From NCBI GenBank assembly GCA_000165345.1, contig CM000429.1, forward strand, positions 768,001-832,000: DNA of 64,000 bases. The letters are read 5' to 3'. The position numbers were made by a program. This document shows positions 18,001 to 27,000 of this stretch, piece after piece (the first letter of the stretch is position 1; every line of letters starts with the position of its first letter).

Positions 18001-21000
18001 ATTTAGACGATTGTTATCTCGATGAAGGACGACTTTGTGTTAATTCTACATCAGTTATACTGAATAGGGGAATGAACCCAGGAGGATTTCTTATATTGCG
18101 TTGTAATATTCAAGAATTGGGAAAAGGACAGAATATGAATCCACTTGTCCAGATTCAGGCATCAACAAGAACAAACTATACATCTCTGCTTTATAATATA
18201 AACGAAGACTCTGTAGAAATTCATGATTTATCTTGGTATCTTACAAGTAGTAAGACTATATTGCCAGATAATACAACTTTTTCAAGAAATGATACAATTC
18301 ACTTTGCTATTGGAATTGATACGAACTCTTTTTCTACTGTAAGTTAAGATTCCTCCTTTTTTTATTCTTTCCATGAACAAATTACTTTAAAAATTAATAC
18401 TAATTACCTAATATAGATTGTTATTAACTCAAAGAATGTTTTGAGACAGGGATTTAAAGGAAATGATCAATTAGTCAGGTTCAAAGTAAGTTTTGATTCA
18501 AACTAAATTATTTCTAATTAACTTCAATTTTAGTCTGTGAAATCTCAATATTGTTCTTGGAAATATGAAATGTCTCTTGTATTCCCTTCCACCAAACAAA
18601 ATGTTAAATACGTACCTGAACAAACAAATGCCACTGAATCAATTCAATCATCAAACAGCACAGAAAATGGTACTGAAAGTCTCGGTAGTACTTAGAAAGA
18701 TAGAAAGTAGACTATTTCTATCTGAAAAAAAAAACTTCATTTTCAGATGCATATTGATTTGCTGTTAAGCTCGTAACTCTGCATAAGATTGCTCGTCATT
18801 TTCAGCTTGGTCTTGTCCCTTTATCTTTAAATCATTGCTAATTTACTAAATTTTGTCTAATTATATTTTTTTCCGCAATGATTTTATTCTTCGTGATTAC
18901 AATATTATTTATATATCCATTTTTGACACGTAATTTTTTTGGTGCATGCATTTATGTGGACAAACCATATGATAGCAGTAAATACCGGCAAGTTTTGTCA
19001 TAAAAATACAAAATTTCTCAGAAAAAAAAAAATTGTGCACACTTTCTGGAATTAAAAATTTCAATATTATGCCTTTTAAATAATTTTACCATATATTACA
19101 ATAAGGAAAAGATTTGGAAATATACTAAGATGTATAAAAAAGAATTGAAATAAAATTTTATCTAATAAAAAATGAATAAAATGGAAAATAATAATAAATT
19201 AAACAAAAATGGAATATAATAATGAGTTCTATTTGCTAATTCCTTCTTTTAATTAAAGAAAAAACAAATCAACTTTGAGAAATCTAAATTTCGACTTTTT
19301 TTTTGTGCCCCTTCCCCCATTCAAATTTTAACGGTTAAAAAAAAATGCGTGGGGATTGCATTTGTGCCCCATTTAATGCACTAAAAAACAGGATACCAGT
19401 CGAGTAATTGGATAAATAAATAATAATTAAAATATAATTAGTATATTATACTTATTAAAAGCAGTAATATAGTTTAAAAGTTACATGGAATAATTTCGAG
19501 TTGGATAAATATAAATATATATTTCATTGATATTAATAGATATTACAAGATTTAAACAGGGGATTTCATTTGTGAGAATTGAAAAATAAAATATTGAAGA
19601 AGAATTCGTTATTTGAAATAAGCAATGATGAATTCAGTTAAAACAATGATTTTCAATGGAATCATTACAGTATATTTGCTGTTGATAACAGGAATATACA
19701 GTGAAAGAATGTTAATGAAAGAAAGTAAGTAAAAATATAATTTGAAAAGTGACCAATTTAATCCAGAAATTAAAACTCATAAATTCTAGATTTGAGAAAT
19801 TTGATTGCGAATGAAGACATATCAGCAGACAACTGCATGAGAAAGTTCTTAATGTTAAAAACTGATTTAAATGATATTACAACAAATCCAACAAAACGTA
19901 ATCCAGTACCACAGGATTACATGAAATCTACGGTAAGTTGTTCCAATAAAAAAGAGTTAATTTATTATGAATTAAGCCAATTCTTAGACTTTAACTCTTT
20001 TTTATTATTTTTTTTTTTTTCCTAATATTAATATAACTATTCTAGTATGCAAATAGTGATCGTAAATTTACTGCATTATCTGGTCCATCAATGCTTGATT
20101 TGGAATCAGAAGTTTGTATGAGCCAATATGGATATAAATTTCCAGTAACAAAGAGTTTACTCCCAACAATATATCCATATTTATCAATTCAGTTTATTGC
20201 GCAGGTTGAAAATTCAAAAGTTTCTAGATTTGGCTTTGTTTGTTCAGACTCATTATCTTATGCAGTAGTTGATTGCAATCAAGGAACAGTGAAAATTGCA
20301 GTATTATTACCAAGTAGAACAGGTAGCTCTGAACCAACTTTGCATTCAATCAATCTTCCGACAGGTTTAAAATGTGGAAATCCGTCAGCTCAATCATGGG
20401 TAGAGTCTAGGTTAATATTTCAAGAAAAGTCAATGAACGACCCATTATTAGTTAAGGGAGTGGGGCCATTTACTTCAGTCTGGACTTACTCAACAGATTT
20501 GAATGAACATACTAGAAGTTTTGAATTCCCTAATCCCTGTCCATCAAGAGAAGTACTATTTTTCACTAGTGGATTTAAAAATGTTCAAACTCAAATGATA
20601 CCAAGAAGTTTATTTGATATGAAATTTTCAACACCAAACTCTAATTTGTTATTACCATTTGAAACAGCATCTTCTTATGTAATATATGGTACTCAAAAGT
20701 ATAATTTGGAGACATTTTCTATTTCAATGGGATTACCAAACTATCCAGATCAGAAATTAGTATATGAGACAAGCTCGAGTGATATTTTATCTTTGGAAAA
20801 TCAAAATAAGACAATTTCAGGAAAGCCTATTTTTGTTCATATAAGCCTACTTCCATTCACAGAACAAATTTCACTTTCAGTTAATAACAAAGCTCAAAAC
20901 ATTAATAAGAATTCATATATGATTTGGGATAAGAAAGATATTGAAAATAATGAAGAAATGGATTCAAAGACCATATTTAAGAAAGGAGCACCTGAACTTT

Positions 21001-24000: not shown

Positions 24001-27000
24001 ATAGAATACTTACAAATGATATTAATCATGCTATGGATATATTAAATAAAGAAAATGTACCTCAAAAATATCCAAATCGATTAGAAAAGTTATTTGGTCA
24101 TTATAAAGTCACTTTATTAGAAGAAGGATTACCAAAAACTAAACCAATTGATGGAATTAAAATGGGTTATAATGATTTATCACCAATGATTTTTGCTTCA
24201 AATCATCCTATTACACCAGTTTCTTTATTATTAGATAAGAAACCTAATATTTATTATGATCCTAATAATCATCATCATAATAGTAATGATTCATTATATG
24301 ATGATACTATATTACCTCAAGAATTAATATTATATTTAAGATCAATATCAGAGGTTACTATTTCACCACATGTTATACCATATTATGAACAATATGTTTT
24401 AACTTTTGGGTAAGTTAAGTTTTTACTTAATCATAATTATTTATTATTTTAATTAAAATAATTTAATTTTGTAAATATTTTCAGTATTCCTACAACTGTT
24501 GTTTTTAATGTTGTAAATAAAATACATAATAAACAGGTAGTCATTCCATATTTAACAAATCCTCTCTTTATGCCAATCAAATATCAAAATGAAAAGTTGG
24601 ATATTAGTTCATTTCCATTTGATATACCAGATGTTGGATCAGGGAATCCAATTGAAGATGAAAATTCATTCTATTCATCAGAATCTAATAATAATGCTAC
24701 AGAAAATTCCAATAATCATCTCAATTCTACTCAAAAATTGGATCATTTACAAGAAAATAATCAAGTTGAAGATTTCTATGTAAATCATACAAATATTACA
24801 AAAGGGTAAGTTTAATTAAATGAACAAAATAAACAAAAATATATTTTTATACCCAATTAATTAATTAATTAATCAATACTAACTATAAATAGTCAATCAA
24901 ATGCATCTTCAGGAGCTTTGAAATTAAGTCAAATAAGTTCTGCTTGGATGATTTTAATCACTTTGATAATACTAATAAGATATTAAGAGAGAGAAAAGTA
25001 AAAATATAAATTTCATTATATTTTTATTTTTCTTTCTTTTTTTTTTATCTTAGAATAAAAAAGAAAAAAATAAGCTGATAATTATTAAGAGAATTATTTG
25101 GCTATAAGGGAGAAATAATGGAAAATCAAAGAAATAACAAGACAACAATACACCCACTCATAATGAAATTGTTCAACAAACCTTAATTTGTCAAAACTTG
25201 TAATCTGGCTTCAATCTAATTACATATTTTTGATTTTTTTTTTGTTTTTTTTAAATATTAATTACATAATAAGTTCAATTACATTACAATATTACAAATT
25301 GAAGTAATACTTTAATGTTTAAAAAAAACATAATGAATAAATAATAATAATAATAATAATAAAATTAATATATGTATATATATATTATATATATATATAT
25401 ACATATATATATTTAATTAACATCAGAAATTTCTTCTTGCTGAACATTATTATCATTATTATTATTATTATTATCTTGAGGGTCAATGCAATTTTCGGAA
25501 GATTTATTCAAGTTTTCTCTTGATTGAGTATTAATGCAACCAGTATTTGAAGTTTTGATTTGTTTGGAACCAGCACATAATTTCTCAATGAATAAGTTCT
25601 TATCAATTGGTTCATTTCCAATTTCAAGCTTATCAAGAGCTCTATTAATTTCATCTTCAGTCATTTTATCTCCAAATGTTTGTAATAGAATAACAAGTCT
25701 CTTTCTGGTAACTTCTGATTGAGTAGACTCTAATGAAACTATGAGTTCTTCTGGAGTATATTTATCAGTAGATGTCTTATTATAAGCTTTAAGTGCAGAT
25801 TCCATATCAATATTACTTGTTCCAAATTCTTTTTTAAGTTCATTACATTGATCTTCAGTTGGTGAAAGCCCTAATCTATGTAAGAATTTTATTAAATCAT
25901 CAAAATTACATTTTCCTGAAGTGTTTGAAACATTTCCAAATTCGATTTCATAAATGGTTGGTTCTTTTTTTGCAATAGTTGCTTGTCTAACAATTTCTAA
26001 AACATCTTCAACAGATGATTCATTAGCAATTTCTCCATTGTCTTCGTTTTCTCCATCAAATTCTCCATAATTTTCATTAATATCAGCATCGGAATATCCA
26101 GAATAATCATCATCAGATTCGATTAATACTACCAATTCTCCATATTTAATGTTTTCAACTTGGATATCATGACATTTAACAAATATAGAATCAAGAGTTC
26201 TATTAATAATTTCCATTTTTCTTTTTAATTATTGATAACAATCTATTATTTTTGATAGGGAAAAGAAAAAACGAATGTTGGTTATGATATATTTTTATAT
26301 ATGTATATATATATATATATATAATATTTCTGATTTTGATTCTAATTCTATTTTATTCTTTTCTATAGTTTTCTTTACTTTGATTAATTCTAATAAATAA
26401 CTTCTAATCTTTAATAATTTCCCAACAATATTAAGAATATATGTTTAAATATATATATATATTTAGATTTGAAGTGGTTTCTTTAATGATTTGATATTAA
26501 AAAATGATATTAATAACTTAACTTCATCTATTTAATATCAGGATTATAATTGAAAAGTTTATTTCTAACTTCTTCAAACAAATCTTTCTTGGAATAATTT
26601 ATATATATTTTTTTATCATGCAAGCTTTAATTATTTAACGTCTAACTTTACTAATTATTTATTTATTTTCTTTTTTTTCTTTTTGAATAATAAATTTGCT
26701 ATGATTTTGTTCAGTATACGTCTCTTACGGTCTTTAAATTGCATTAGTATAATTTTTTGTGTGCAAATAAAATAAGGTGTATCTTAGACATGCCAGAATA
26801 TTACAATTTTACTGCTGAAATTAATTCTCTAGTTATACAATTTTTAAATATGTAAATAGGTCATATTTTGTTAAGAAAAATTTTTTAAATTAATTTATTG
26901 ATGTATTTTTTTTTTCAATTAAATTAATTACTAGTCAAATCTAATGATAAAAAATTAGAGATAAATATATATATATATATATATATATATATATATGTTT

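Follow-up and report, generated by a model that had tools for sequence, protein, structure and literature searches.

A nine-exon gene on Cryptosporidium parvum chromosome 1 very probably unites cgd1_3550 with its downstream neighbour and is predicted to encode a GPI-type surface glycoprotein with an Apple domain

Several zoite proteins provide the background for the gene described here. In Cryptosporidium, gp40/15 (GP60) is polymorphic and carries a glycosylphosphatidylinositol (GPI) anchor, and gp900 is a micronemal protein with poly-Thr domains. GAMA, present in Plasmodium and Toxoplasma, is a conserved micronemal protein that is GPI-attached and contains no enzymatic domains. The micronemal lectins TgMIC4 and Sarcocystis muris SML-2 are the nearest solved relatives of an Apple/PAN domain encoded at the locus under study. 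This locus lies in a window of 64,000 nucleotides (nt) of Cryptosporidium parvum chromosome 1 (positions 768,001 to 832,000 of contig CM000429.1; positions below are those of the window), and it contains cgd1_3550, a 925-aa Apple-domain protein for which a signal peptide, a transmembrane (TM) domain and a GPI motif were all reported missing (Gao et al. 2021, PMC8710574). In reviews published between 2021 and 2026, cgd1_3550 counts among the few experimentally localised Cryptosporidium microneme proteins, and its function is given as unknown. We report here that cgd1_3550 and a separately annotated downstream gene of 126 aa, probably cgd1_3560 as judged from gene order, are very probably one gene that the databases list as two. 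Sequence comparison establishes as firmly as it can, and we hold with high confidence, that 19625-24986 (+) is a single gene of nine exons. The best overall explanation, that this single gene encodes a secreted GPI-type glycoprotein with a stalked Apple head, has in our estimate a probability of about 0.8.

The region 19300-25400 is AT-rich eukaryotic DNA in which a chain of open reading frames (ORFs) on the + strand is broken only by short segments beginning with GTAAGT. The model was built from the ATG at 19625, which is preceded two codons upstream by an in-frame TAA, and the earliest acceptor that kept the frame was chosen at each step. The nine joined exons form a coding sequence of 4710 nt, made of 1569 codons and a terminal TAA at 24984-24986, with no internal stop. 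All eight introns have the form GTAAGT...(T/C)AG, are 55 to 113 nt long and contain 9 to 22% GC. The hexamer GTAAGT is found eight times on the + strand of the gene, as compared with 1.9 copies expected from base composition, and every copy is a donor located exactly at the end of an ORF. An earlier note, drawn from the sequence alone, had proposed this gene; its coordinates, coding length, introns and phases were all exact, the ORF-track pieces that it joined are present in the ORF table, and the exact splice sites bring no in-frame stop.

All features of the model are on the + strand. Exon 1 (19625-19724, aa 1-33) contains the start codon and a hydrophobic N-terminus and ends in phase 1. It is followed by intron 1 (19725-19789, 65 nt, GTAAGT..TAG, 22% GC), exon 2 (19790-19932, aa 34-81), which is homologous to residues ~35-75 of the C. 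andersoni protein model P0010, and intron 2 (19933-20045, 113 nt, GTAAGT..TAG). Exon 3 (20046-22864, aa 82-1021) holds the entire annotated 925-aa ORF of cgd1_3550 (20091-22868), and intron 3 (22865-22944, 80 nt, 17% GC) links it with the downstream exons. The first Met of exon 4 (22945-23218, aa 1021-1112) is residue 1093. Intron 4 (23219-23273) is the shortest and the poorest in GC (55 nt, 9% GC), and precedes exon 5 (23274-23648, aa 1113-1237). Removal of intron 5 (23649-23728, 80 nt) creates the junction peptide RDYCLDV|AQDFRRF with exon 6 (23729-23907, aa 1238-1297). After intron 6 (23908-24004, 97 nt), exon 7 (24005-24409, aa 1297-1432) holds the annotated 126-aa protein (ORF 24033-24413). 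Intron 7 (24410-24484, 75 nt) leads to exon 8 (24485-24805, aa 1432-1539), which encodes the second of two IPDVG motifs and a variable Ser/Asn-rich linker. Intron 8 (24806-24892, 87 nt, phase 2) has a TACTAAC sequence 8 nt before its acceptor AG, and exon 9 (24893-24986, aa 1539-1569 and the stop) encodes a GPI-type C-terminal signal. Tryptic peptides of the model that span junctions include SFGNDNNDGFIDLNSK (exons 4/5) and DYCLDVAQDFR (exons 5/6). A scan of the locus against Rfam gave no match, and the window contains no tRNA. The intron number had been called exceptional, which agrees with published figures: in C. parvum 10.8% of the genes have introns, and these have 2 to 10 exons with a mean of 2.6 (Isaza et al. 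2015, PMC4637869), so that nine exons stand at the top of the range.

An open frame alone is weak evidence for this model, because 18,720 GT..AG combinations of donors and acceptors also stay open. Independent tests were therefore sought, and comparative data single out the nine-exon model. The C. hominis and C. tyzzeri loci are respectively 96.6% and 96.8% identical to window positions 19300-25300. Both species keep an uninterrupted nine-exon ORF (1555 aa in C. hominis, 1551 aa in C. tyzzeri) together with all 16 splice sites, including the eight GTAAGT donors. Insertions and deletions (indels) within exons are all multiples of three and all fall in exon 3 (12, 36, 3 and 3 nt in C. hominis; 12, 18, 27 and 3 nt in C. 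tyzzeri), and exons 4 to 9 have none in either species. Seven of the eight introns (introns 2 to 8) carry indels of 1, 2, 3, 4, 5, 7, 8 or 14 nt, mostly not multiples of three; taking the two species together, these are of 4 and 7 nt in intron 2 and of 5 and 8 nt in intron 3. Substitutions at codon positions 1, 2 and 3 number 14, 6 and 65 relative to C. hominis and 9, 8 and 41 relative to C. tyzzeri. The ratio of non-synonymous to synonymous substitution rates (dN/dS) is 0.09 and 0.12 overall, 0.05 to 0.07 in the N-terminal part and 0.08 to 0.12 in the C-terminal part. In exons 1 and 2, six synonymous and no non-synonymous changes separate C. parvum from C. hominis; exon 1 by itself differs at one position from C. 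hominis and at none from C. tyzzeri. Furthermore, the exons that are not annotated in C. parvum (4, 5, 6, 8 and 9) show codon-type conservation and no indels. The exon 9 peptide SSGALKLSQISSAWMILITLIILIRY is identical in the three species, and the three nucleotide differences found within it in C. hominis are synonymous only in the frame of the model; in the frame that the C. hominis annotation adopts, they would change amino acids.

More distant species gave the same picture. A phmmer search of 1.84 billion representative sequences with an annotated C. hominis protein of 482 aa returned eight matches, all short single-exon Cryptosporidium ORFs, several of which stop exactly at predicted donors. 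The contigs that carry these matches led to three divergent loci, L005 (32% GC), L006 (47% GC) and L007 (22% GC). Alignment by tblastn placed the frame changes at the same residues as in C. parvum (1021, 1112/1113, 1238, 1297 and 1432), and the boundaries are GT(A/G)AGT...AG introns of the same phase. Introns 3 to 8 are kept in L006, introns 4 to 8 in L005 and introns 5 to 8 in L007, intron 8 being in phase 2 at the same position in all three. Once spliced, the three ORFs are open through to the stop codon and the conservation of the protein is unbroken across the junctions. The exon 5/6 junction RDYCLDV|AQDFRRF is invariant in six species. At the 5′ end, introns 1 (phase 1) and 2 (phase 0) of the C. 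andersoni gene occupy the positions seen in C. parvum. The junction that ties cgd1_3550 to the downstream exons is spanned by L006, where intron 3 lies at the same position and in phase 2. Exon 4 is 71% identical to L006 over its full length, including the first 72 codons; since this conserved coding sequence contains no Met for 72 codons, exon 4 cannot start a separate gene. Taken together, the intact ORF, the kept splice sites, the frame-keeping indels, the third-position bias and the distant conservation of introns bear out the single-gene reading of the earlier note. Word-indexed protein searches with the whole protein and with its C-terminal part gave no matches, and the search with the N-terminal part retrieved the C. 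andersoni orthologue as its sole match; these searches also miss close relatives that are present in the collection, and their silence does not signify absence.

The correspondence with the published protein is exact. The window is 99.94% identical to the C. parvum assembly GCA_031892065.1 (CP029780.1), which encodes the 925-aa ORF. The published cgd1_3550 has 925 aa, and the antiserum used to localise it was raised against EKNTEQNTEF, positions 687-696 (PMC8710574). In the full model this peptide occupies aa 783-792 (22149-22178, +), an offset of precisely 96 residues from the 925-aa numbering. The ORF 20091-22868 is thus cgd1_3550, because both the published length and the position of the antiserum peptide match exactly. 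The 126-aa ORF 24033-24413 corresponds exactly to XP_628168.1/EAK88302.1, listed as a 'hypothetical protein' for C. parvum Iowa II, and is also a separate gene in GCA_031892065.1. As the earlier note had foreseen for annotation based on ORFs, the gene is split or truncated in the public annotations, which list fragment pairs of 925 and 126 aa in C. parvum, 911 and 482 aa in C. hominis, and 907 and 126 aa in C. tyzzeri. The stops of the annotated or tracked fragments (the 925-aa, 126-aa and 79-aa ORFs) are the TAA within the donor G|GTAAGT of phase-2 introns, at 22863-22870, 24408-24415 and 24804-24811. Truncation by ORF-based callers at a TAA inside a donor may affect other Cryptosporidium loci as well.

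All parts of the model except the reading frame of exon 9 are annotated somewhere; an annotation of the whole gene was not found. The 482-aa multi-exon protein of C. hominis 30976 (PPS97019.1, positions 10001-11837 of L003) starts at Met1093 in exon 4 and joins exons 4 to 8 through the same junctions as our model. Its last exon is read in a non-conserved frame, with the tail ...YIFRSLEIKSNKF...KVKI, and because of this other frame it lacks the hydrophobic GPI-type tail that is perfectly conserved in the DNA. The C. andersoni 'PAN domain-containing protein' (723 aa, 63% identity) already includes the signal-peptide exons and is cut short by the end of its contig within the Thr repeat. This model, P0010, seems to be flawed at both ends. 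It contains a 12-nt micro-exon and a 27-nt 'intron' (L002 10093-10202, LRBS01000100.1) where one phase-1 intron of 110 nt fits, and its last 30 residues (LQPLQKLKLLQQQ..., L002 12240-12426) result from out-of-frame reading of the Thr-rich repeat, within which the contig stops. In C. parvum, 1,926 models were altered by the IOWA-ATCC re-annotation of 2022, and the merge may already be present there or in newer CryptoDB gene models. The locus itself is known and its architecture is a familiar apicomplexan theme; the novelty appears to lie in the merged model and what follows from it.

The 1569-aa product has only two hydrophobic segments, aa 7-26 and aa 1552-1569. The first has a mean Kyte-Doolittle value above 1.9 and is taken to be a signal peptide; C. 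andersoni has an equivalent putative signal-peptide exon, with a clear N-terminus of the type MKISTILFFLLYIILQSLVKSQS. The N-terminal part that follows (aa 82-696) contains 15 Cys, all invariant, and is 62 to 63% identical to that of the gastric species C. andersoni. Within it, a PAN/Apple domain with six Cys lies at aa ~428-497 (21084-21293, +). It matches Pfam PF00024 (PAN_1) with 23.2 bits when the segment 21060-21650 is searched, the gathering cutoff being 21.4, and the C. andersoni orthologue scores 23.6; in the context of the whole protein the score is 20.6 bits, slightly under the cutoff. The match is borderline but reproducible. Cys 427, 451, 455, 461, 473, 497 and 499 are invariant between C. 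parvum and C. andersoni. A profile search of the PDB gave weak matches to the apple domain of TgMIC4 (4a5v, E 0.017) and to Sarcocystis SML-2 (2yil, E 0.026), in which the core Cys pair up. The earlier note had counted two PAN/Apple domains, of which only this one is statistically supported. The candidate second copy (aa 541-606) had no Pfam match at E≤10, aligned with the first by hhalign with a probability of 0.9% over 16 columns, gave only unrelated weak matches in the PDB profile search, and shares with the first only the motif W-x-Y-D-x3-Q-R-C. In the N-terminal 338 aa, the Pfam search produced only sub-threshold matches to A2M_BRD and TEP1_N.

Three low-complexity tracts lie in or after this head. 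The expected run of nine Asn is at aa 519-527 (21357-21383, +) and the (DG)14 block at aa 697-724 (21891-21974, +). The Ser/Thr block (aa 729-771, 21987-22115, +) had been described as an uninterrupted run of about 40 Thr; it does contain 40 Thr, together with three Ser in 43 residues, and the longest uninterrupted run is T34. The tracts are tandem repeats in the DNA, and their lengths vary between species (DG 14, 8 and ~6; S/T 43, 46 and 28; N 9, 5 and 3). The DG block is absent from C. andersoni. This species does have a Thr-rich tract, as do C. hominis and C. tyzzeri. The Thr block is taken to be an O-glycosylated mucin stalk. Cryptosporidium encodes candidate O-glycan transferases for mucin-type glycosylation (PMC9713705); the Pfam 'Mucin' match of the protein is compositional and under the cutoff. 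An acidic segment (aa 772-890) after the stalk carries the epitope of the published antiserum. The DG and Thr repeats are also overlapped by long ORFs at 21659-22171 (-), 21738-22166 (-) and 21838-22128 (+), with poly-Val, poly-Ser and poly-Leu products; we rejected these as genes, since it is the (GATGGA)n and (ACT)n tandem repeats that generate them.

From the end of exon 3 to exon 8 extends a conserved C-terminal region of about 600 residues (aa ~891-1485, 22473-24644, +), which is 56 to 77% identical in the three divergent species, has a dN/dS of 0.08 to 0.12, and is followed by the variable Ser/Asn-rich linker. No Pfam or PDB family matched it, profile searches yielding only noise (BET3 at E 0.14, NitrOD5, TINF2_N), and phmmer detected no relative outside Cryptosporidium among the 1.84 billion representatives. 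Internal repeats or a SEA-like module were also considered for the C-terminal region, and rejected after Smith-Waterman comparison with shuffled sequences (best z = 4, for aa 893-1020 with the PAN domain, with heavy gaps). The protein ends in a putative GPI attachment signal (aa 1546-1569, 24912-24983, +), composed of an S-S-G-A small-residue site, a spacer of 8 to 9 residues, a hydrophobic end of 12 to 15 residues and the residues RY. Checked against rules, an S-G-A triplet lies 5 to 8 residues before a hydrophobic end of 15 to 18 residues in five of six species, and the hydrophobic tails of L005, L006 and L007 are equivalent. There is no room for a cytoplasmic tail, since the hydrophobic stretch ends the protein or is followed by 'RY' alone. 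The C-terminal layout is that of a classical GPI attachment signal, as the earlier note had supposed, and on this pattern GPI anchoring of the product, itself a prediction, is likely. That cgd1_3550 was described without signal peptide, TM domain or GPI motif is explained by the published model, which lacks exons 1-2 and 4-9.

As an observation apart, the motif IPDVG occurs twice, at window positions 22056-22070 (aa 675-679 region, ...MMSIPDVGGVSP) and 24612-24626 (aa 1475-1485, ...FPFDIPDVGSGNPIEDE). Each copy marks the end of a conserved globular part, directly before a low-complexity linker, and both are kept in all species that cover them, including C. andersoni (KPIPDVGSYN), L005, L006 and L007. 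The motif might serve for processing or act as a structural cap.

The peptide antiserum gave an immunofluorescence assay (IFA) signal mainly in the sporozoites' anterior third, read by its authors as 'very likely, non-exclusive' micronemal (PMC8710574); this supports the sporozoite location suggested by the earlier note. Supplements of the proteomic and secretome papers examined held no data under the identifiers cgd1_3550 and cgd1_3560. From these elements we propose the following course. The primary transcript would lose its eight short AT-rich introns, as sequence and conservation suggest, and the 1569-aa precursor would enter the endoplasmic reticulum through its N-terminal signal peptide. 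A GPI anchor would replace the C-terminal hydrophobic signal close to the conserved S-G-A site, and the Thr-rich block would be O-glycosylated into a stiff, extended mucin stalk. Storage would be apical, in the micronemal region of the sporozoite, as the published IFA suggests, and release would bring the protein to the apical surface. On the zoite membrane the conserved 600-aa region would be membrane-proximal, and the stalk would hold out the Cys-containing N-terminal head with its Apple/PAN domain. If the Apple-domain lectins of micronemes are a guide, this head might bind host glycans or proteins during attachment and invasion. We hold this adhesin role tentatively, at no better than even odds.

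The public annotations suggest quite another arrangement, with at least two genes independent of one another: cgd1_3550, intronless or extended at its N-terminus and ending at 22868, followed by one or more small genes of 126 or 482 aa. Several independent GenBank annotations keep the fragments apart, and so does the RNA-seq-based re-annotation of 2015, whose supplement lists cgd1_3550 and cgd1_3560 separately (PMC4637869). Such genes would, however, be separated by a gap of only 80 nt at 17% GC, bounded by GTAAGT and AG, while the mean intergenic distance in C. parvum is about 550 nt (PMC4637869). Moreover, the 'stop' of the 925-aa ORF is the TAA of that very donor, exon 4 is conserved in L006 and offers no start codon over 72 codons, the junction retains its position and phase in a species whose DNA reaches 47% GC, and exons 4, 5, 6, 8 and 9 evolve as codons, free of indels. 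Separate genes are thus very improbable. A second possibility accepts the gene model and disputes the end of the protein: the C-terminus might act as a TM or tail anchor, or the acceptor at 24912 might produce a soluble isoform ending in ...KGSFEIKSNKF...KVKI. This acceptor (TCTTCAG|G) looks good and its frame is the one used for the last exon in the C. hominis annotation; the GPI signal, for its part, was judged by a rule check and the tail of L005 has no clean omega/omega+2 site. Nevertheless, the acceptor at 24892 is the first AG after the TACTAAC located 8 nt upstream of it, and the three exon 9 differences between C. parvum and C. hominis, silent in the GPI frame, would each alter the protein in the alternative one. 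The S-G-A site precedes the hydrophobic end in five of the six species, and no residues beyond 'RY' are left to form the cytoplasmic tail of a TM protein. A TM-anchored or soluble product is therefore quite unlikely, and the GPI-type ending is preferred.

Doubt is greater about what the protein does. Instead of an invasion adhesin, it could be a structural or protective glycoprotein, such as a glycocalyx component or a lubricating mucin, or a component mainly of the gamont or oocyst stage. The low dN/dS (~0.1) and the 63% identity to the gastric C. andersoni are unlike those of the fast-evolving mucin antigens of Cryptosporidium, and strong purifying selection is no less in keeping with a conserved structural role than with an adhesin. 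The sole functional data come from one antiserum (PMC8710574). Conversely, staining of the anterior third of sporozoites fits micronemes (PMC8710574), and the nearest solved Apple/PAN relatives are micronemal lectins of coccidia. The architecture points the same way. A GPI-anchored protein with a mucin stalk is typical of zoite surface ligands such as gp40/15 and GAMA. We regard a non-adhesive role as unlikely on balance, with a weight that is still real. A bolder version of the adhesin hypothesis would see in aa 82-696 and aa 891-1485, which have no detectable relatives outside Cryptosporidium and a dN/dS of ~0.05 to 0.12, a genus-specific and essential GPI-anchored invasion ligand, a counterpart of the GAMA/AMA1 type; we consider this a long shot. 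Several results weigh against the single-gene, GPI-type glycoprotein reading or parts of it. The published location derives from one peptide antiserum by IFA, with non-apical staining too, and immuno-electron microscopy failed (PMC8710574). Hydropathy and simple rules of thumb were the basis for calling the signal peptide and the GPI site, and the omega-type site of L005 is non-canonical, with no clean small residues at omega/omega+2. The spliced exon 5/6 junction sequence had no match in metagenome contigs. The exact 1569-aa product (and its 1568-aa form) was not found in a collection of 15 billion proteins, an exact look-up that also missed the 925-aa ORF that is there. Finally, AlphaFold2 reached a pLDDT (predicted local distance difference test) of 28.8 for the N-terminal part with a two-sequence alignment and of 38.4 for the C-terminal part with eight sequences, which is uninformative for ~1,100 of the 1,569 residues.

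The surroundings of the gene contain ORFs for TSP1/Apple adhesins, an AP2 protein, a CHD helicase and an acetyl-CoA synthetase. Neighbours on the same strand are annotated with introns too, at 17804-18695 (+), 28034-28755 (+) and from 31556 onward (+), and further GTAAGT sites occur on the + strand at 17858, 18339, 18486, 27068, 28452, 31830 and 32383, so that a stretch of 15 kb is unusually rich in introns for C. parvum. Farther downstream, the 263-aa EGF-domain ORF at 54467-55258 (+) is cgd1_3680, a putative microneme protein also reported without a signal peptide (Gao et al. 2021, PMC8710574). It may likewise lack an upstream exon; a quick look at 53500-54560 turned up donor-like sites at 53819 and 54384 only, and no signal-peptide exon that stood out. 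A 276-aa ORF at 39542-40372 (+) lies over its entire length antisense to a 745-aa ORF at 39664-41901 (-) with (GTx)n-type repeats, and is probably a spurious, repeat-driven ORF.

The value of the merged model lies in the correction of the gene model of a candidate microneme antigen, and it brings neither a new biological principle nor a new kind of system. A 925-aa protein without signal peptide was hard to square with a secretory location, and the merge would remove this paradox; concomitantly, it would retire the separately annotated 126-aa 'hypothetical protein'. It would also alter the choices made for expression, tagging, knock-out and vaccine-antigen assessment. About 90% of the genes in this genome have no intron, and a gene of nine exons would rank with the most intron-rich. 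If the genus-specific ligand hypothesis were true, the protein would be an unusually conserved cross-species target for vaccines or antibodies, overlooked because all studies used the truncated 925-aa model.

How, then, does the predicted protein compare with the known systems? The published cgd1_3550 model describes the same locus without exons 1-2 and 4-9, and the full model adds 644 residues to it, including both targeting signals and the conserved 600-aa region. With TgMIC4 (4a5v) and S. muris SML-2 (2yil) the product shares the PAN/Apple core of Cys and aromatic residues, ..DC..C...P.C..[FW][ST]YN....C., as well as apical secretory storage in zoites, which here rests on the published IFA. 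It differs from their tandem arrays in having one supported Apple domain, and the similarity is weak (E 0.017 to 0.026). TgMIC4 and SML-2 are soluble lectins, whereas the protein described here would combine a large head, mostly of non-PAN sequence, with a mucin stalk and a GPI-type tail; sugar binding is suggested by analogy only. Like gp40/15 and gp900, it has Ser/Thr homopolymer blocks, variable repeat lengths and an apical or secreted location, and its C-terminus is of GPI type, as is that of gp15. It shows no sequence similarity to gp40/15 or gp900 beyond the low-complexity parts, and its gene has eight introns. In contrast to the polymorphic GP60, purifying selection on its globular parts is strong (dN/dS 0.05 to 0.12). 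GAMA, to which it may be likened by description, would be a functional analogue only.

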